From Escherichia phage aldrigsur: a DNA stretch of 42,379 nt. Location: the sequence record MN850592.1. One strand, 5' to 3'. The notes below the pieces were generated by a model, which was not told the DNA's origin, ran no database searches, and was given only the letters and a program-made list of their open reading frames with translations. This document shows, piece by piece, positions 9,557-18,082 of the stretch (position 1 is its first letter; each line of letters begins with the position of its first letter). Both the position numbers and the translations under genes were made by a program.

Positions 9557-9817
9557 TTAGCTCCCAATGCCGAGGTTACTTGCCACACCAGTTCCGGTGC
9601 GACGGCGGCGACCACCCAGCGTATCAGAGGCCGAGCTTACTTGGCCACCTGCCTGAATGGTTGGGGTGTTCTCACCAGCGAGGTCGGCTGCAAGGTTAGC
9701 CTGCATCGTTTCTGCCTTCACCTGCGCCGGGTCAGTCTTGATAGTGTACTGAGGCTTTTGGCTACCCAGCCCGAAGACCGAGCCAATGCCCTTGAATACT
9801 TTGCCTACGCTACCCAT
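9557..9817 (-). CDS. Hypothetical Gly-rich small protein (possible virion protein), 86 aa
   Basis: ORF tightly packed upstream of portal. Confidence 0.45.
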   Translation of the reverse strand: MGSVGKVFKGIGSVFGLGSQKPQYTIKTDPAQVKAETMQANLAADLAGENTPTIQAGGQVSSASDTLGGRRRRTGTGVASNLGIGS

Positions 9818-10236
9818 TACGGTTTCTCCAAATCAATGAAGCGGTACTCCTGAACGTAAGGCCGCACCATATGGGAGTAACCGCACCAACGCACACCCTC
9901 TGAACGGGCCACGTCTTTGAGTACACGGAGGATGGCACGCATCACTCCACGGTTTCTGTACGGGGGCCAGACGTATGAGGCCATAACGACCACCATCTCG
10001 CCCACATGAATATCGAATAACCTGCCGATGTGTGCAACGGCCATGAGGCTGTCGTCATCGTCAGTGATGTAAACGTCAACACAACCGGAGGCGGTGGCCT
10101 CGTACATGCTGTCAACAATCACATCGGGAGATAAGTCTGACCATGGCCGCTCGGCTTGAATGCCTTCGGCCACAGCACGGCGAATGTCGAGTGGCATTGT
10201 CGTGTGTGATGTATTTCCCATAGTAGACACTTTCAT
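9817..10236 (-). CDS. Hypothetical protein, possibly GNAT-like acetyltransferase, 139 aa
   Basis: ATG at 10236 with GGGAGAG SD; weak R-x-x-G motif (YRNRGVMRAIL); function uncertain. Confidence 0.45.
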   Translation of the reverse strand: MKVSTMGNTSHTTMPLDIRRAVAEGIQAERPWSDLSPDVIVDSMYEATASGCVDVYITDDDDSLMAVAHIGRLFDIHVGEMVVVMASYVWPPYRNRGVMRAILRVLKDVARSEGVRWCGYSHMVRPYVQEYRFIDLEKP

Positions 10237-10490: not shown

Positions 10491-10526
10491 GGTAGCGTGA
10501 TACATATCACTATAGACACTTTCATA
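10491..10526 (-). promoter_or_regulatory. Composite conserved element (19-bp box TATGAAAGTGTCTATAGTG followed by palindrome TGATAcaTATCA) in the RNAP-downstream intergenic region; candidate phage promoter/operator
   Basis: Near-identical composite found in inverted orientation at 31190..31226; 19-bp box also at 24533..24551 and 10219..10237. Confidence 0.35.
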
Positions 10527-10553
10527 TAAGTCAATGATACATATCACTATTTA

Positions 10554-12986
10554 TCAGCAGAAAAACTTGCTTGATTGTTTCACAAGCTGGATGTCCAGAT
10601 TGCCACGTTCAGGTGGAACAGCATTGTATCTTACCGCAAGTTGTTGAATTGGGTCATGTTGCTCATACATCTGTACGAACTTTTCACGAATGACCTTATG
10701 CAGCAGACCAGCATGTGCCGCCGCAACACCGAACGAGTCATGGATGGATACCATGTACACCCCGTTATTCCACATCTCCCACAGCACCTTCATCATGTGG
10801 CTGGCATCCATGGCGTGTACGAAATTCGGAGCAATCGCAGCCGCACACTTCCGGCTATCCGGCTTGTCCAGATACTCGCGCAGCTTAATGCTGTGGATAC
10901 CCATGAGGTTGATGTTGTTGAGCATCGTCTCCTTGCTGGCTTGGTACAGGTTAACCACCCGCAACCCTGACGGCGCAATGATTTCTACGTACTCCCCGTT
11001 GGCTGCCGCCTCAACCGCGATAGCCTGCAACCATGCCATCAGCTCAGCCGCCTTCGGCACAACACGAGGGATTGCATTCCACATGAACTCTGCGATGAAC
11101 TGCGCACACTCCAGCAGGCTCTTGCCGTCCGGCAGCTTGACCCTGTTCTCACGCAGGTACAGGCAGTAGTAGTCAACCATACCGTGCCGGGTTGCCCCGT
11201 ACACGTAGGTCATCACTGGCTTCTTGGCCATAGCCCGAACGATGCCGATGCTAACAAGCCACGTACCCATCTGCGTCGGCGCTGTCGTCTCACTTTCTTC
11301 AAGAGCCTGCATTGCCGCTGCTGCCGTCTTGAGGTAAATGTCTGCCTTACGTCCGATGCTATTGATAAGATTGACAGCAGCACCGCCAACTTCATCTCGT
11401 AGCATGGCCGACAGGTGTTGTAGTCCTGAACATGTAGCGTCCCATTGTGTAACCACTCGGCAGGGATAAGTCTCAGGACTTCCTGAGTCGATAGCTCGAA
11501 TGAGTTCAACAGATGCAGCCCACGCGCTGACAGGGCTATCGGCCTCTGACCAGAACGAATCAAATGCCTCTGGAAGACGGCACGCCTCACGTAGTCGGGG
11601 GAGTGTTTTGTCCGTCCACGCTGCCCGGTCTTCGAAGTCTGTTGCGTCGTAGCCGAAGCAATTCGCAACATGTACCTTGAGCCAGAACAGCCCCTCACTT
11701 CCGAGAGCCACTGGTTCAGCAAGTTCGAGCAGCGCTCGCACTGCGTCGATGGACTGAGGGTTAAGGGTCGAAGAATAATAAATTCGGCCCCGTGTATCAG
11801 CGTAGGTCGGGAGGTATACCCTGTCATAATGCGCATAGCGCTCTGCCTCTTTGACTGCACCATTCAGCGCCAGCATCTGCGACGTGAACTTACGCAACTC
11901 ATTGTAATACAAGCGAGTCTTAACCTTGTACTCATGAGCCTCGGCATCCATCTGCTGCTGCATCTCTGGTGGGAACTTGCTGATGTACTGCGCGAAGCTG
12001 ACACCAGCCGGGATGGTGAATGGGAGCTTAGGCTCACGAGGCGGCACAGGCAGCCCCATAACGCCTGTACGGTTCGTTCTCAGGAACTCCAGTACCATTG
12101 GGTTAATTCGGTACGGAACGCTGCTGAGCATCATACACGGCTCTATAACAGGGGTCGGGTCAACGTTCAATGCACGATACCCTTTGTGGTTCATGCGACT
12201 CATTACCCGGTACATCGCCGCCTGCCCATCCGAGTGCCACATACCGCTGCGACCGTTCGGTGCAATCTGCTTCGGCGGGATAATCAACGGTGGGCAGCAC
12301 ATGCCATCAGCACGCGGCATGTCCAGCCAGTCGTTCATCGTAGCCAGCACATCCTCATGCAGTGCGAAGTGTGCCGTACCGCGCTGACGTTGGTTGCCGC
12401 CGACGCGAATCGTAGCCACCAACCCAGTTGGCTCCACGCACTTCATCATCAGCTTACCAATGGTAATCAGAGCACGCTGTGGCAGCACGTCAATCTCTAC
12501 CCCAACGTTCGCCGCCGACGCACGAGCTTTGTTGTAGACGTGGTTGGCCGACTTCGACCGGGACTTCTTAACGTCCTGCTTCACGCGCTCCATGTACGCT
12601 GCCTGCTGTGGCCCGGTCTGCTTCGCCCGGAGATACACCACCTCAGCCATCAGCGCTTTACCCATACTCTTGAGCAGACTCAGTACCGCCTGCTCCGACG
12701 CAGCACCGGACACCGCCATGCTCAATGCAAGAGAAGCACACGCCTTGGTGCCAATCTCACGCATGTACGTCCGGTACTGCGCACCGTACCCACGGGTCGT
12801 TTCGTTCAGGGTTTCTTGCATCGCAGCTTCGACAAGAGGATACGCCTCTACCATCATACGCTGGAGCAACGGCACCGACCCGGCCCGGCCACTGGCCATG
12901 GCTTCTTTGATATTGTCCAGCCAGCCCTCGCGGTGTCTGGCTCGTGCTTCTTCTTCAAGTCGAATCTGCTCAGCAAGTAAGTCCAC
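10554..12986 (-). CDS. Single-subunit DNA-dependent RNA polymerase (T7 gp1-like), 810 aa
   Basis: Recognisable T7 RNAP motifs: CSGLQHLSAMLRDEVGG (T7 CSGIQHFSAMLRDEVGG), FVHAMDASH, SIHDSFG. Confidence 0.95.
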   Translation of the reverse strand: MDLLAEQIRLEEEARARHREGWLDNIKEAMASGRAGSVPLLQRMMVEAYPLVEAAMQETLNETTRGYGAQYRTYMREIGTKACASLALSMAVSGAASEQAVLSLLKSMGKALMAEVVYLRAKQTGPQQAAYMERVKQDVKKSRSKSANHVYNKARASAANVGVEIDVLPQRALITIGKLMMKCVEPTGLVATIRVGGNQRQRGTAHFALHEDVLATMNDWLDMPRADGMCCPPLIIPPKQIAPNGRSGMWHSDGQAAMYRVMSRMNHKGYRALNVDPTPVIEPCMMLSSVPYRINPMVLEFLRTNRTGVMGLPVPPREPKLPFTIPAGVSFAQYISKFPPEMQQQMDAEAHEYKVKTRLYYNELRKFTSQMLALNGAVKEAERYAHYDRVYLPTYADTRGRIYYSSTLNPQSIDAVRALLELAEPVALGSEGLFWLKVHVANCFGYDATDFEDRAAWTDKTLPRLREACRLPEAFDSFWSEADSPVSAWAASVELIRAIDSGSPETYPCRVVTQWDATCSGLQHLSAMLRDEVGGAAVNLINSIGRKADIYLKTAAAAMQALEESETTAPTQMGTWLVSIGIVRAMAKKPVMTYVYGATRHGMVDYYCLYLRENRVKLPDGKSLLECAQFIAEFMWNAIPRVVPKAAELMAWLQAIAVEAAANGEYVEIIAPSGLRVVNLYQASKETMLNNINLMGIHSIKLREYLDKPDSRKCAAAIAPNFVHAMDASHMMKVLWEMWNNGVYMVSIHDSFGVAAAHAGLLHKVIREKFVQMYEQHDPIQQLAVRYNAVPPERGNLDIQLVKQSSKFFC

Positions 12987-12988
12987 AA

Positions 12989-13294
12989 CTACTCCTTAAT
13001 TTGTCCAGCCAACCGCTCAACCTCAGCCGCATCGTCTTGAAATTCTTCGACAATACCAACGCCGTAGGTAGGTTTATCGTAACCGGGTTGCGCCTGATTA
13101 CGCTGCCCTAAGTCTGCCAGCACCTCGTGTTGGAGCGTGCTGTTATTCGTACCCGTACCGCCGCAGGCTTCGCAGTCCATCAGGACTACCTGCCCACCAA
13201 TTAACATGCCCCGGTAGGTGCCACTCCCATGGCACGCACCGCACACATTCTTGTCTACCGCTGTGTCATCGACAGCTCTCTGATAACGACTCAT
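12989..13294 (-). CDS. Small DnaJ-type zinc-finger protein (two CxxCxGxG motifs), ~101 aa
   Basis: CGACHGSG and CEACGGTG motifs; preferred ATG at 13294 with AGGGGA SD (ORF track gives 12989..13354). Confidence 0.55.
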   Translation of the reverse strand: MSRYQRAVDDTAVDKNVCGACHGSGTYRGMLIGGQVVLMDCEACGGTGTNNSTLQHEVLADLGQRNQAQPGYDKPTYGVGIVEEFQDDAAEVERLAGQIKE

Positions 13295-13302
13295 ACAATC
13301 CC

Positions 13303-13482
13303 CTACGCCAGATAGCAGATGAACCAAGTTGGCAGTACAGCCAACAGTACCCACACAACGAAACCAGCAGAGCCAGCCCGTGTCGGGTAGTGCGTCAAGT
13401 TGTAAGACTTACACGCGCTGAGGGTGGCCAGTGTAAAGTACACGAACCAGAACAAAGCAATCACATAAAGTAAAGCACTCAT
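13303..13482 (-). CDS. Small membrane protein (two predicted TM helices), ~59 aa
   Basis: Hydrophobic segments; ATG at 13482 with AAGGAAAA SD, ATGA overlap with upstream stop (ORF track 13303..13527). Confidence 0.45.
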   Translation of the reverse strand: MSALLYVIALFWFVYFTLATLSACKSYNLTHYPTRAGSAGFVVWVLLAVLPTWFICYLA

Positions 13483-14063
13483 TTCGTTTTCCTTAAAGCA
13501 AGTTCCAGAATGAACAGCGCATTGCAAGCAGCGTGCGCCAGATGGTGCAGATTGGATTCCGGGTCAGTCTCCTCACCCTTACCCACTGCGGTCAGGTGAC
13601 GAAGCAGCGCTGACTTGTAACGTTCCTCACCTTCCGGCACGGTCTGCCACGAGTGAGCCGCGTACTTCTGAGCGCCGAAGGTTAGCACGCTGGCTACAGC
13701 TTCCAGCGCATTCGGGCAGCCGTCGAACAGCAGAGCCATGCGAGGCTTGTCGCCGTCGAACTTCATACCGCCCGGCCCACCAACACCCTGACCAATGGCC
13801 ACGGCCACCTCAACATCAGAGGCCGGGTCATATGGGTCGTTCTCAATGAACGCAGTCTGGACTGGCTGTACCTCATAAGGCTCCAGTACCAGATGTTCCG
13901 TCCTGCCGTCCCAAACGCAGGTGTAATAATCCCTGCTGTCGTTAGGTACATCATAGGGTTCATCGTACGTCAGGATGATACCGTTGTCCCGCATAGCGTT
14001 GAGCCGTGGGCTTTGGTAGTCTCGGTTAATATCCAGACAGAACTTGTCACCACGTTTACTCAT
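13479..14063 (-). CDS. Hypothetical protein, possibly nucleotide pyrophosphohydrolase (MazG/dNTP diphosphohydrolase-like), ~194 aa
   Basis: Alpha-helical C-terminal half with K..R...Y/W pattern reminiscent of phage dNTP pyrophosphohydrolases (weak, from memory); start at 14063 with GGAG SD (ORF track 13479..14105). Confidence 0.4.
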   Translation of the reverse strand: MSKRGDKFCLDINRDYQSPRLNAMRDNGIILTYDEPYDVPNDSRDYYTCVWDGRTEHLVLEPYEVQPVQTAFIENDPYDPASDVEVAVAIGQGVGGPGGMKFDGDKPRMALLFDGCPNALEAVASVLTFGAQKYAAHSWQTVPEGEERYKSALLRHLTAVGKGEETDPESNLHHLAHAACNALFILELALRKTK

Positions 14064-14559
14064 CTTTGTCTCCATCGTATTTGGCATTGGCGTGGACGTA
14101 TTCATGGTTGTCCTCGTACCGGGTCACTTCATACACTGTGATGCCGAGGCTTCGCATGAAGTCCACGATGTGCGGCAGGTCATCGAAAGCACACACGATG
14201 TTCTCGATACCAATATCCTCCAGAGCGGATAGCTTCATCTCTGTGTCCTTACGGCAGTCACCAATCTCTCTCATGATTAGCTTGTCGTAAACAACGCCAG
14301 CTTCGTCGAGCCACTGCTCTGTTACTTCACGGGCCACGGCCCCGCGTCCAGTCAGGATGACAATGCGATACGTGAGGGCCAGAGCGTTCACAATGTCAAT
14401 CGTATCCTGAAACGCAGGGTCGTCAGCGCCAGCCAAGTTGAACTCGGCCCACGCTTCGTCAAGGTGCCGACGCTCCGGTGGAGGCAGCAGGTGCAAACGC
14501 CAGCGGCCATCGGCCAGCGTACCATCAAGGTCTACTACTACGGTGTCTTTCATGTGCAT
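14056..14559 (-). CDS. HAD-superfamily phosphatase (polynucleotide 3'-phosphatase/nucleotidase-like), ~167 aa
   Basis: HAD motif I VVVDLDGTLADG near N-terminus, later ILTGR and FDD motifs; ATG at 14559 with GAGGAAG SD (ORF track 14056..14724). Confidence 0.65.
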   Translation of the reverse strand: MHMKDTVVVDLDGTLADGRWRLHLLPPPERRHLDEAWAEFNLAGADDPAFQDTIDIVNALALTYRIVILTGRGAVAREVTEQWLDEAGVVYDKLIMREIGDCRKDTEMKLSALEDIGIENIVCAFDDLPHIVDFMRSLGITVYEVTRYEDNHEYVHANAKYDGDKDE

Positions 14560-14749
14560 CGTGTGCTTCCTCAAGAGCAAAGATAATGTCTCGGACGTAC
14601 GCCCAAGGCAACCAGACTTCCTCACCGTCCTGAGAAATGCAGACGGTGCCATCTTTGTACAGCTCAACCTGAGTGTTGGCCTCCCACTCAATCGAGAGGC
14701 CATCTTCTTTAAGCTGTACCACATCTTCTTGGTACAGGGTTCGTGTCAC
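14525..14749 (-). CDS. Hypothetical acidic protein, 74 aa
   Basis: ORF with ATGA overlap to upstream gene stop; overlaps HAD start by ~35 nt. Confidence 0.4.
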   Translation of the reverse strand: MTRTLYQEDVVQLKEDGLSIEWEANTQVELYKDGTVCISQDGEEVWLPWAYVRDIIFALEEAHDAHERHRSSRP

Positions 14750-15873
14750 TCTAACATCTCCGGGCTAATCGTGAATCGTGCAACCTCACCGTACCGGGTA
14801 TGGTACGTAATCACGCTCGCGCTGCGCTCGCTCAGCCAACCACCACGAGAAGCATAGGCATCCTTCGCCGCCAGCGTACGGTGCTGCTCGACAACCATGA
14901 CACCGGACTCCAGTACCTTCTTGTGATGCAGGTGGCCAACGTGTGCATAAGCATGTTTGGTTCGGCCATACACTTCGCGGAACTTGGCGACCAGTACAGT
15001 CTCCAGTTGTTCTGCCTTGCGCTTGTGACCATGGTGGAAGAACAGTGCCGTCTCGCCATGCTCATAGCAGTAGTACGGGTCAGGGCTGCGGTCAACAGTA
15101 ACACGCGGCTCGTCGGCGTACAGTACATGCAGCAGCTCACGCATCCAGATAGAGCTGGCCATGTCGTGGTTGCCCTCGGCACACACTACGTGAACCTGCG
15201 GGAACTTCTCCAGCAGCATACCAATGATGCGGCGCTGCGCCCGGATAGCTACACGCACCAGCTTCTGGAATCGCGTGTCGGCATCCAGCACATGACCACT
15301 CGACGGCGTTACTGCATCCAACCCATCCCAGTGCAGGAAGTCACCGAGCTGTCCGAAGATAGCAACCTGAGCTGGCGGCGCACTGTCGATGGCGGCGGCG
15401 AACCACTTGACCAGCAGGTCTTCCGCAATCTTCATATCCCAGTCGTCGCCAGTCTCCTCAGCCCACGCCAGCATACCGAGGTGGTAGTCAGTCAGGACGA
15501 ACAGGTTAAGCAAATCGGCTGGCGCTGTGCGACCTGCATACAAGCGCGGCGGCTCCGGCACGATGCTCTCACTGATTGCATCAACTGCTGCCTGTAGCAT
15601 AGCCAGCTCTTGCTCACGGTCGAGCGCAGTCTTCACCCACTGCATGACAACGTTGCCGTCCTTATCGTACAGCGTGGACGTACCCTTGACTGCATACGGC
15701 TCCGGTACTTCCTTCGTCATGTCGTGCTCAGGACTCCAGCCGCTCTTGGCAAGCTGGCGCTTCCGGTATCGGATGGCACTCTCGGTCATGTCGTGCTTAT
15801 CCGCAATGGCTTTGGTGCCAAGCCCTTCGGCAATGTCTTCTTTGAGTTGGTGATTCGTTAACTTGGTCATCAT
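14746..15873 (-). CDS. Calcineurin-like metallophosphoesterase with N-terminal helix-turn-helix domain, 375 aa
   Basis: Phosphoesterase motifs GDFLH, GNHD, GHLHH; N-terminal HTH-like GLGTKAIADKHDMTESAIRYRKRQL. Confidence 0.7.
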   Translation of the reverse strand: MMTKLTNHQLKEDIAEGLGTKAIADKHDMTESAIRYRKRQLAKSGWSPEHDMTKEVPEPYAVKGTSTLYDKDGNVVMQWVKTALDREQELAMLQAAVDAISESIVPEPPRLYAGRTAPADLLNLFVLTDYHLGMLAWAEETGDDWDMKIAEDLLVKWFAAAIDSAPPAQVAIFGQLGDFLHWDGLDAVTPSSGHVLDADTRFQKLVRVAIRAQRRIIGMLLEKFPQVHVVCAEGNHDMASSIWMRELLHVLYADEPRVTVDRSPDPYYCYEHGETALFFHHGHKRKAEQLETVLVAKFREVYGRTKHAYAHVGHLHHKKVLESGVMVVEQHRTLAAKDAYASRGGWLSERSASVITYHTRYGEVARFTISPEMLE

Positions 15874-16250
15874 TTCCCCTTAGTCAATAAGGCTCGCGCT
15901 TTCGCGGCTGCTGCCTTCTTACGTCTGTCGGCTACTGCCGCCTTCTTCTCTGCCTCGGTCTTGTGCGTTGGGTACATCAGACCAGTGTGTTGCTTACGTC
16001 GCCACTCGATAGCGCTGTCCAGCCAATCATCCACAGTGCGCTGGCGCTTCGCTCGGTTGGCAGAGTTCTCTACCTTGCCGAGCTGAGCATTGCACCAGCG
16101 ACAGATGACCCCGCGAATCTCCCCACTCACATGGTCGTGGTCAACAACCATGAGCTTGAGGTCTACCATCGGCTCGTTACAGAGTGGGCAAGGACAGCCC
16201 ATCGCATTCTTCCGCATCTGCAACAAGGTCGCGCCAGTCACTTTCCGCAT
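15870..16250 (-). CDS. Endonuclease VII-like Holliday-junction resolvase, ~126 aa
   Basis: CPLC...DHDH...GEIRGVICRWCN matches T4 endo VII pattern (CxxC...HLDHDH...RGLLCNLCN); start uncertain (GTG 16262 / ATG 16250 / ATG 16202). Confidence 0.75.
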   Translation of the reverse strand: MRKVTGATLLQMRKNAMGCPCPLCNEPMVDLKLMVVDHDHVSGEIRGVICRWCNAQLGKVENSANRAKRQRTVDDWLDSAIEWRRKQHTGLMYPTHKTEAEKKAAVADRRKKAAAAKARALLTKGK

Positions 16251-17151
16251 ACCATTCCTCACTCAATTTCTTATGCAACCAGATACGCAGCTCCTTGCTC
16301 AAGGTCAGCGTATTCAAGTGAGCTGCGAATGAGTAGGTCGGCGTGCGGTACAGCCACAGAGCAACAGCCTCCGGCCATGGGTTCTGGTCACGCACCATGT
16401 ATTCTCTCAGCACCAGCTCAGCCACTACCGACTCGTCATCAGTTTCCTGATACTCGTTCAACATATTGTAAGCTGCCTGCTTGCCAAGTTTCTTGACACC
16501 AGCGATGTTGTCTGCCGTGTCACCCATCAGCATCTGCGCCCAAAAGAATATCGGGCCGTGGCCAATGAGCGACTTGTCACTCTTGGTTTCATGCCACCAC
16601 AATGTGCCGATACCTTTGCATGGCTCCAGCACCTTGTTGTCATACGGGTCAAGGAACCTGCCCGGCCAGCAGCGCAGGTCTTTATCCGCACTGTAGATGA
16701 CAGCATCCTCCAGCCCAATCGTCCACGCATCCATGATTAAGGTGTCGTCTGCCTCGAACTCAAAGTTCAGGTGGACGTACCAGTCCTCACCATCGGGAAC
16801 GTTGAACATGTTCCGGCCAATCGCCTTACGCAACGGCTCAACCAGACCGGGCTTTCTGTCCTTGTCTCGGTTGCCTTGGTACGGCTTGACACCGCGCAGC
16901 TTGTACCGACCAGCCTTGCTACACTCGGCAGCGGTCAGCTCGATACGCACAGACTGGGCGGCGGCCAAGAACTTAGCAGTCAGCACCCCTGAGCAGAAGC
17001 GCGTCTTTGCTGTCTCAATGTTCTTCGTGGTTGCCGCCGCGACGTAGACCGTGGAGTCAGCATCGCACAGCAGGATACGACCAGACACGTAACCATCAAA
17101 CTGGTCATCAAGTTCCTCGGCGTTGTGGAGTAGACGTTTCAATCTGCTCAT
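16177..17151 (-). CDS. 5'-3' exonuclease (T7 gp6 / FEN-like), ~324 aa
   Basis: GDTADNIAGV H3TH motif, acidic clusters; ATG at 17151 with GGGGGA SD (ORF track starts at GTG 17169). Confidence 0.8.
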   Translation of the reverse strand: MSRLKRLLHNAEELDDQFDGYVSGRILLCDADSTVYVAAATTKNIETAKTRFCSGVLTAKFLAAAQSVRIELTAAECSKAGRYKLRGVKPYQGNRDKDRKPGLVEPLRKAIGRNMFNVPDGEDWYVHLNFEFEADDTLIMDAWTIGLEDAVIYSADKDLRCWPGRFLDPYDNKVLEPCKGIGTLWWHETKSDKSLIGHGPIFFWAQMLMGDTADNIAGVKKLGKQAAYNMLNEYQETDDESVVAELVLREYMVRDQNPWPEAVALWLYRTPTYSFAAHLNTLTLSKELRIWLHKKLSEEWYAESDWRDLVADAEECDGLSLPTL

Positions 17152-17188: not shown

Positions 17189-18082
17189 TTACAGACTCGG
17201 CAGCCCGAAGTCAGCGTCACCAGTTACGTCCGGCTCTTTGGTGCTGGTCTTGTCAGCAGCGCCAGCCGTCTCCAGCTCCTTCACTTCTTCCTTGACCTCG
17301 GCCACTTCCTCCGGCGCACCCACGTCACCCAGCTCCGGCAGCTCAGCGATTGCAGAGCCAGCACCTGCACCATTCAGCAGCAGGTCAAGCGGAGAGCCGG
17401 GGAACTCTGGAGATTCCAGCAGCTTATCCTGAATCCAGTTCTTGGATTTGCCATCGTCGTTCTTACCTTCGATGTACAGGGATTCCCAGTCTTCCTTGGT
17501 CGGACGGTTCCACAGGAACAGCTTGAACAGCGTCTCGTCCTCAACCTCCGGCACCGGGTACGGCTGGTCAGTCACCGGGTCAACCGCGAGCATGATGTTC
17601 TCAAGGTCAATGTTGGCGTACACCTTCTTGTTCTCGCCCTCGCCCGATTCGTTGTGGATAATCGGAACGATGAAGGTGTGGTTCAGAAGCTGCGCGAAGT
17701 GCTTCGCAGTCTTGTCCGGGTTCATACGCTTGAACAGTTTGTATGCGCCGGACTTGCTGTTGAGGTCTTTCTTCACAGCGATGAACTGCGTGCGCACCTT
17801 GCCCGGCACCATCTTACCATTGACAACTTCGTGGTAAGTCTCGCCGTTCTTGGCCTTGCCCCACAGCGCGAACTGGAGGAAGAACTTATTGACAGGCGGC
17901 TTGTCCGGTGCCTGCTTGGTTACGCTCGGCCCCACTTCAATGTAGCCAACCAGACGTGCCAGTGCCTTACCTTCCGGCAGCAGCTTACCACCACCAGACG
18001 TGGCTTCGTTAAAGTCAAGTTCTTCCTCGTCAACGTACTGTTCGACGATGGAGTTCATGCGGTTCAATACAGATGCGGTCAT
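17189..18082 (-). CDS. Hypothetical protein with acidic C-terminal tail (ssDNA-binding protein candidate), 297 aa
   Basis: Position between DNA polymerase and exonuclease; acidic tail ...DVTGDADFGLPSL. Confidence 0.5.
   Translation of the reverse strand: MTASVLNRMNSIVEQYVDEEELDFNEATSGGGKLLPEGKALARLVGYIEVGPSVTKQAPDKPPVNKFFLQFALWGKAKNGETYHEVVNGKMVPGKVRTQFIAVKKDLNSKSGAYKLFKRMNPDKTAKHFAQLLNHTFIVPIIHNESGEGENKKVYANIDLENIMLAVDPVTDQPYPVPEVEDETLFKLFLWNRPTKEDWESLYIEGKNDDGKSKNWIQDKLLESPEFPGSPLDLLLNGAGAGSAIAELPELGDVGAPEEVAEVKEEVKELETAGAADKTSTKEPDVTGDADFGLPSL

Follow-up and report, generated by a model that had tools for sequence, protein, structure and literature searches.

Three adjacent genes on the minus strand of Escherichia phage aldrigsur, whose sequence of 42,379 nucleotides (nt; MN850592.1) is the whole stretch of DNA analysed here and is referred to below as the window, encode a metallophosphoesterase with an N-terminal helix-turn-helix (HTH) domain, a stand-alone HAD phosphatase of the Pnkp type and a DUF5664 protein that is a putative deoxynucleoside triphosphate (dNTP) pyrophosphohydrolase. 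In our estimation, there is an even chance that these genes constitute a facultative module that breaks down DNA and curates the nucleotide pool. What was observed here and forms the basis of this reading is the family membership of the three proteins, their intact catalytic residues, the operon-like packing of the genes and their recurrent synteny in other phages. The window is the genome of a T7-related coliphage of the genus Bonnellvirus (Autographiviridae), and its 2.9-kb region around the cluster shares 98.8% identity with Escherichia phage altidsur (MN850568), which is of the same genus, and 79-90% with further Bonnellvirus phages, J8-65 for instance. The original prediction, drawn from the sequence of the window alone, had described a cluster of three phosphoesterase-type enzymes; the coordinates of its open reading frames (ORFs) were exact, and the enzyme classes that it named proved correct in profile searches and motif comparisons (Table 1). 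Since the matches to PHROG families had E-values of 1e-146 for the HTH-metallophosphoesterase and of 4e-55 and 4e-72 for the other two proteins, the three genes are real and conserved and not chance ORFs.

Table 1. Positions in the window of the three clustered genes, their domains and other genes discussed in the text (aa, amino acids).
Feature	Position	Strand	Basis or remark
HTH-metallophosphoesterase gene, 375 aa	14746..15873	-	PHROG 704 'DNA repair exonuclease', E=1e-146
N-terminal three-helix HTH, residues ~1-43	15745..15873	-	AlphaFold and homologue profiles
Binuclear metallophosphoesterase domain, residues ~121-375	14749..15513	-	Motifs DxH, GD, GNHD, HHGH, GHxH
Stand-alone Pnkp-type HAD phosphatase, 167 aa	14056..14559	-	HAD_PNKP profile, PDB matches, invariant motifs
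DUF5664 protein, 194 aa, putative dNTP pyrophosphohydrolase	13479..14063	-	PF18909, E=1e-32
Variable N-terminal beta-rich domain, residues ~1-92	13788..14063	-	Predicted SH3/KOW-like; conserved in close relatives only
Conserved C-terminal DUF5664 catalytic domain, residues ~99-194	13482..13769	-	Predicted four-helix bundle
74-aa ORF	14525..14749	-	Overlaps both neighbours; seen in altidsur and J8-65
Endonuclease VII gene	15870..16262	-	PF02945, E=3.6e-13; upstream boundary of variable slot
Single-subunit RNA polymerase gene	10554..12986	-	Downstream boundary of slot
PHROG 1614 nucleotidyltransferase, 227 aa	20555-21238	-	PHROG match

The HTH-metallophosphoesterase has a second ATG at 15870, from which the protein is 374 aa long, as annotated in altidsur. 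All five motifs of the metallophosphoesterase domain (D129-x-H131, G177-D178, G234-N-H-D237, H280-H-G-H283 and G313-H-x-H316) are invariant in 37 homologues, and the protein has the beta-sandwich fold of the metallophosphoesterases together with a strongly conserved insertion at residues 181-210. Its own match to Pfam Metallophos was below threshold (E=0.019), yet 14 of the 37 homologues matched this profile. The HTH profile HTH_23 was likewise sub-threshold in the protein itself (E=0.029); eight homologues matched HTH_8 (best 6.4e-10), eight each matched HTH_1, HTH_28 and HTH_23, and matches to GerE and related profiles were found as well. With the AlphaFold helices at residues 7-15, 20-26 and 31-43 (predicted local distance difference test scores of 76-90) making the N-terminus trihelical, the earlier description of a calcineurin-like metallophosphoesterase carrying an N-terminal HTH was borne out in both of its parts. 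The family is abundant: 2,046 of 50,697 phage records contain it, and its clusters in the protein collection number more than 5,384. Its carriers include T1-like phages (T1 p16), Webervirus, Kagunavirus, Jerseyvirus, Rhizobium phage 16-3 and Vibrio phages. No specific functional study of HTH-metallophosphoesterases in phages turned up in searches of the literature.

The HTH fusion is a family-wide trait, found in phages as different as T1-like phages, Jerseyvirus, Webervirus and Vibrio phages, and generic nucleic-acid anchoring therefore fits better than recognition of a phage-specific operator. This bears on the suggestion that the HTH binds the palindromic sites at 10498-10550. The palindromes themselves are real: two identical 16-nt copies (TGATACATATCACTAT, plus strand), each with a palindrome in it, lie at 10498-10513 and 10535-10550, spaced 37 nt, just downstream of the RNA polymerase stop codon and before the next gene, with a GC-rich hairpin after them. 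Among 249 loci, however, the exact 13-nt core of the site was present only in the near-identical altidsur, whereas the HTH is widely conserved, and the equivalent intergenic region of J8-65 has no such repeat even though its HTH-metallophosphoesterase is 88% identical. We therefore rejected the palindromes as the operator of the HTH, and the proposed binding is unsupported.

The product of the middle gene matched the Pfam family HAD_PNKP (PF25109) with E=1.2e-14 (55 bits against a cut-off of 27.6), and its sequence matches in the PDB were Pnkp1 (4xrp, 9e-8) and T4 polynucleotide kinase (1ltq/5uj0). The motifs DLDGT, TGR, GDxRKD and DD are invariant in diverse phage homologues, the residues concerned being D10, D12, T70-G-R72, D101, K104 and D126-D127. 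The HAD_PNKP match and the presence of DLDGT agree with the initial assignment to HAD phosphatases having the DxDGT motif of polynucleotide 3'-phosphatases. Because the 167-aa protein consists of the HAD domain only, with no P-loop 5'-kinase domain, it is a Pnkp-type phosphatase and not a Pnkp. No 5'-kinase domain was found elsewhere in the window either, and no ligase among the ORFs of the window or in the annotation of altidsur and J8-65. The label 'polynucleotide kinase' given to the HAD gene in many GenBank records does not apply to it.

For the DUF5664 protein, the match to PF18909 (dGTP_diPhyd_N, formerly DUF5664) scored 112.5 bits, the cut-off being 27 (E=1e-32), and covered residues 113-206 of a longer, 208-aa reading of the frame. 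The protein is 43% identical over 77 aa (E=3e-11) to ALY10775.1 of Arthrobacter phage Wayne, and the columns that are invariant across the DUF5664 family (G, A-x-K-Y, W, Y, A-x-x-R-H, G-E-x-x-D-x-E, H and E-L) are all shared with the Wayne enzyme. The latter, a stand-alone DUF5664 protein purified in 2026, converts dATP, dUTP and dGTP to deoxynucleoside monophosphates (dNMPs) with the preference dATP > dUTP > dGTP and, on dATP, with a kcat of 0.48 s-1 and a Km of 20 uM (PMC12884076). Given this identity to a characterised enzyme, the functional half of the earlier label 'MazG/dNTP-pyrophosphohydrolase-like' is right by homology; the MazG half stands as a possibility, Pfam having given no MazG match. 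Sequence and profile searches of the PDB returned no match at all, and Foldseek with the whole model gave weak matches that involved the N-terminal beta domain only.

In the AlphaFold model of the DUF5664 protein, four helices occupy residues 109-193, and the N-terminal ~90 residues form, with high confidence, a small SH3/KOW-like beta barrel that varies between homologues; these carry unrelated N-terminal extensions, the Wayne enzyme included. That this part is swapped among DUF5664 homologues suggests that it is a variable targeting or regulatory domain. The same Pfam family, PF18909, also contains the DUF5664-DUF550 fusion of Acinetobacter phage SH-Ab 15497, whose N-terminal domain, like that of the Wayne protein, is unrelated to the one in the window. 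Both Wayne and SH-Ab 15497 make 2-aminoadenine (Z) DNA and encode PurZ or PurZ0, and it is from Z-DNA phages that the DUF5664 domain is best known; the window, by contrast, has no PurZ- or PurA-like gene among its assigned ORFs (all ORFs of at least ~300 aa except one of 1036 aa were assigned to other functions), and we rejected the possibility that this is a Z-genome phage. As a separate observation, PHROGs 5033 and 2252 give DUF5664 proteins the label 'endolysin; inhibits RNA polymerase', from which the name 'endolysin' has passed into many records of Vibrio and Pseudomonas phages (an example of a DUF5664 gene is that of Vibrio phage K174, locus L006, 6025-6396); this label is almost certainly a propagated mis-annotation.

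The packing of the cluster is operon-like. The stop codon of the endonuclease VII gene overlaps the first ATG of the HTH-metallophosphoesterase gene (ATGATGA), the stop codon of the latter overlaps the GTG start of a 74-aa ORF (GTGA), and this ORF in turn overlaps the start of the HAD gene by 35 nt. The HAD and DUF5664 genes overlap by 8 nt (ATGAGTAA), and GAGGAAG and GGAG precede the HAD and the DUF5664 gene, respectively. Inside the cluster, no sigma-70-like promoter or intrinsic terminator stood out above background. The 74-aa product is 50% identical to gp24 of J8-65 and has a marginal Pfam match (22 bits, the cut-off being 21) to an SH3-like integrase DNA-binding domain, and no counterpart was present in the two outside phages compared. 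It was considered as a conserved partner of the metallophosphoesterase and rejected, the small ORFs downstream of this gene in Jerseyvirus and T1-like phages being unrelated to it.

Synteny was assessed in 240 related IMG/VR loci, 80 anchored on each of the three genes, the six-frame ORFs of which were scanned with profiles built for this analysis. In phiKMV-type phages, DUF5664 is the constant gene directly upstream of the RNA polymerase gene, and the content further upstream varies. The whole stretch from the endonuclease VII to the RNA polymerase gene is spanned by 59 of the 80 DUF5664-anchored loci, of which 42 have a gene of the HTH-metallophosphoesterase type (PHROG 704, PHROG 221 or a 402-aa family) and no DEDD exonuclease and 17 have a DEDD/RNase_H_2 exonuclease and no metallophosphoesterase; not one has both or neither (exclusivity of the two gene types was scored within 6 kb). 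Parsimony on a rough neighbour-joining tree of the RNA polymerase puts the number of swaps at about five. The perfect alternation with the DEDD exonuclease is the best available, if indirect, argument for the metallophosphoesterase being a DNA nuclease. The 402-aa family, which occupies the slot in some phiKMV-type phages (L124, 4704-5912; L128, 4631-5839), has no Pfam match; it shows an HTH-like N-terminus and recognisable GD and GNHD motifs, with an hhalign probability of only 33%, and from these features may be a third, very divergent family of HTH-metallophosphoesterases.

The HAD gene directly follows the metallophosphoesterase gene in Bonnellvirus, in some Drulisvirus-like phages and in unrelated siphoviruses, and the same order recurs in related IMG/VR loci. 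In Kagunavirus Golestan the two frames overlap by 4 nt and a dNMP-kinase-like gene comes next; in Webervirus GH-K3 they are separated by a 37-nt gap, with HAD in turn overlapping the kinase frame by 4 nt. The gene after HAD is DUF5664 in Autographiviridae and, in the siphoviruses, a P-loop gene of PHROG 139, whose product has a GxxGxGKD P-loop and is dNMP-kinase-like, not Pnk-like. An NDT-like DUF7768 gene takes the place of HAD in two loci (L102 and L118), Vibrio phage K174 has the order metallophosphoesterase, HNH, NDT-like and DUF5664, and in ~14 further loci a DUF5664 or kinase gene lies directly beside the metallophosphoesterase with no HAD gene. In DEDD-exonuclease lineages, DUF5664 often has a small canonical MazG gene beside it, and in the sampled loci HAD never occurs alongside that exonuclease. 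The neighbours of HAD elsewhere, DUF5664 and the dNMP-kinase-like P-loop protein, are mononucleotide enzymes, as is the NDT-like protein that replaces it, and together with the DUF5664 biochemistry (PMC12884076) they support 'dNTP-pool manipulation', one of the two functions between which the original prediction had left the choice.

In the module that we favour, the three genes would be co-transcribed in the middle, DNA-metabolism class. The HTH-metallophosphoesterase would most likely be a Mn/Mg-dependent DNA nuclease that is tethered to nucleic acid via its HTH. The HAD protein would be a 3'-phosphatase of the T4 PseT type without the kinase, stripping 3'-phosphates from DNA ends or from 3'-nucleotides, which are possibly the products of the metallophosphoesterase, and the DUF5664 enzyme would split selected dNTPs into dNMP and pyrophosphate as a sanitising or biasing step. 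The substrates, the end chemistry left by the nuclease and the cooperation of the three enzymes are what we infer in this scheme. If the metallophosphoesterase does leave 3'-phosphates, this would explain why, in the sampled loci, HAD is found beside metallophosphoesterases and never beside DEDD exonucleases, which leave 3'-OH ends. Phage T4 uses gp46/47 (a metallophosphoesterase nuclease), the 3'-phosphatase PseT, the dNMP kinase gp1 and the dCTPase/dUTPase gp56 for the breakdown of host DNA and the reuse of its nucleotides. By textbook analogy, the cluster may be comparable to this set in enzyme content, as the same four enzyme classes recur around clusters of this type in different phages; however, apart from the HAD domain the T4 proteins are not orthologous to the cluster families, and the T4 genes are scattered.

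Several observations weigh against such a module. The association of metallophosphoesterase, HAD and DUF5664 is facultative: HAD is present in only 9 of 78 metallophosphoesterase-anchored loci, none of the partners is present in 55 of 80, and T1 and Jerseyvirus carry the metallophosphoesterase alone. Within the Autographiviridae sample, the tree calls for only about two changes in HAD presence, so this part of the co-occurrence largely reflects shared ancestry. PDB sequence and profile searches with the metallophosphoesterase returned no match, leaving it with no characterised relative by sequence; it was assigned to no sub-family, and the structures that it resembles range over nucleases, nucleotidases and phosphodiesterases, those for cyclic nucleotides included. 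Moreover, a phage whose DNA is canonical would gain nothing obvious from a dNTP hydrolase, unless the hydrolase departs in specificity from the Wayne enzyme, and all three activities are predictions from sequence.

The metallophosphoesterase has no sequence-level similarity to the Mre11, SbcD and T4 gp47 nucleases or to PolD DP1, and it has an N-terminal HTH instead of the C-terminal capping and Rad50-binding region of Mre11/SbcD. No gene for a large coiled-coil ABC ATPase that could be a Rad50/SbcC partner was found in the window, where ORFs of at least 500 aa were assigned to other functions except the 1036-aa ORF, which lies in the virion-gene block and has no family match. The structural matches to the non-nuclease phosphodiesterases MJ0936, YfcE and Rv0805 are as good as those to nucleases. 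A role as a trans-acting proofreading exonuclease in the manner of PolD DP1 was rejected; the phage DNA polymerase has an N-terminal Exo I-like motif (IDVETE) and an HNAPYE motif, and since it carries this exonuclease motif of its own, such proofreading is not needed.

The same three enzymes might instead act on mononucleotides only, in a cascade from (d)NTP through (d)NMP to nucleoside or base. This would reshape pools or destroy nucleotide-type immune signals or triggers, making the cluster a phage counterpart of the PUA-Calcineurin-HAD effector. We consider this rather unlikely, in spite of the parallels with the ECOR28 system, in which the HAD enzyme converts dNTP to dNDP and the calcineurin-like enzyme dNDP to dNMP, and in which the calcineurin domain can give way to MazG-like enzymes, with HAD retained (bioRxiv 10.64898/2026.01.15.699771). 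A cascade of this kind would also account for the fact that all recurrent neighbours except the metallophosphoesterase itself are mononucleotide enzymes, as well as for the ~14 loci with a DUF5664 or kinase gene and no HAD, and the top Foldseek match of the metallophosphoesterase is indeed the cyclic-nucleotide phosphodiesterase Rv0805. An HTH fusion is difficult to account for in a small-molecule enzyme, however, and the perfect alternation with the DEDD exonuclease points to a nucleic-acid substrate; furthermore, the HAD protein belongs to the polynucleotide-phosphatase family PF25109 and not to a nucleotidase family, and the genes are located in the replication module. The ECOR28 PUA-Calcineurin-CE-HAD system is an effector of bacterial defence that has a PUA sensor, assembles into filaments and acts on dNTPs, whereas the phage proteins have no PUA domain and matched none of the PADLOC defence models. 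The likeness between the HAD and calcineurin families of the two is at the level of enzyme class. A bolder reading, which we regard as very unlikely, is a coupled counter-defence cascade of the three enzymes that processes the breakdown products of the host chromosome, with the HTH-metallophosphoesterase as a new class of nuclease that leaves 3'-phosphate ends and needs its own phosphatase. Such a cascade could erase nucleotide-type danger signals, be it m6-dAMP, the trigger of PUA-Cal-HAD immunity, or another nucleotide messenger, and would be the viral mirror image of the bacterial dNTP-depleting effector.

It is also conceivable, at a similarly low probability as the mononucleotide cascade, that the genes have no joint function and that the stretch between endonuclease VII and RNA polymerase is a permissive slot for unrelated accessory genes whose products act independently. 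The highly variable content of this stretch (HAD, DUF7768, small MazG, DEDD exonuclease and three metallophosphoesterase families) is in keeping with this, as are the mostly solitary occurrence of the metallophosphoesterase elsewhere and the rarity of HAD gain and loss within Autographiviridae. Yet all genes in the slot encode nucleases or nucleotide enzymes, which is not a random set, and the adjacencies of metallophosphoesterase with HAD and of HAD with the kinase recur across entirely different genome layouts, with frames that overlap or abut. More doubtful still, and in our view improbable, is nucleic-acid end healing, the other function offered by the original prediction. Here, the ends of RNA (tRNA) or DNA would be healed or repaired, countering host ribonuclease toxins: the metallophosphoesterase would open 2',3'-cyclic phosphates, the HAD protein would remove 3'-phosphates and the nucleotidyltransferase encoded upstream (Table 1) would rebuild the 3' end. 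In Clostridium thermocellum Pnkp the 2',3'-phosphoesterase module is indeed a metallophosphoesterase, the closest solved relatives of the HAD protein are the phosphatase domains of Pnkp1, of the Pnkp1-Rnl-Hen1 RNA repair system, and of T4 Pnkp, and a PHROG 1614 nucleotidyltransferase is present in the genome. The window HAD shares PF25109 and the motifs DxDGT, TGR, GDxRKD and DD with T4 PseT and Capnocytophaga Pnkp1; it differs from them in standing alone, with neither a 5'-kinase domain nor a partner ligase and with neighbours from nucleotide metabolism, and its P-loop partner in siphoviruses resembles a dNMP kinase. The nucleotidyltransferase gene, for its part, is 6 kb from the cluster, on the other side of the DNA polymerase gene, and is not syntenic with it: apart from two very close relatives, a homologue was present in one (L143) of the 160 HAD- and DUF5664-anchored loci. 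The match of its product to the head domain of poly(A) polymerases and CCA enzymes was below threshold and covered only ~25 residues, and the protein is too short for a full CCA-adding enzyme. The case for end healing is therefore weak, and the module for DNA breakdown and nucleotide-pool curation is the reading that we retain.

All three genes belong to common phage families and are already annotated in altidsur, as 'phosphoesterase', 'polynucleotide 5'-kinase/3'-phosphatase-like protein' and 'putative phosphodiestherase'. With each family already catalogued and matching annotations in a near-identical phage, the finding itself is ordinary, and what keeps it of interest is the very abundant family of HTH-metallophosphoesterases, which is repeatedly paired with a phosphatase of the Pnkp type. 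For this very common, uncharacterised family of phage proteins, a testable hypothesis is now available. If the coupling of nuclease and phosphatase is true, it would account for the recycling of host DNA by many small phages, and it would correct the widespread mis-annotations 'polynucleotide kinase', 'endolysin; inhibits RNA polymerase' and 'DNA repair exonuclease'.

The gene order in this part of the window is phiKMV-like and entirely on the minus strand, running from primase, helicase, nucleotidyltransferase, DNA polymerase, a PHROG 862 protein, 5'-3' exonuclease and endonuclease VII to the three-gene cluster; after it come a small membrane protein and a zinc-finger protein, then the single-subunit RNA polymerase and finally the structural genes. 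No terminal repeats were found in the window, and an NCBIfam search returned nothing specific. The small membrane-like protein (59 aa, 13303-13482, minus strand), encoded between the DUF5664 and zinc-finger genes, is strongly hydrophobic and matches no family. The zinc-finger protein, of the CxxCxGxG type (12989-13354, minus strand), is similar to the central domain of DnaJ and falls into PHROG 6060, 'anti-termination protein Q-like'; its gene, directly upstream of that of the RNA polymerase, is kept in all Bonnellvirus-type loci and absent from Drulisvirus-type loci. The 297-aa PHROG 862 protein (17189-18082, minus strand), encoded between the DNA polymerase and 5'-3' exonuclease genes, has an acidic C-terminal tail and a weak match, below the cut-off (E=4e-4), to the NGO0469 phage replication-initiation family. 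Finally, the ORF at 9817-10236 (minus strand), situated between the gene for the RNA polymerase and those for structural proteins, is GNAT acetyltransferase-like (Pfam E=8e-5).

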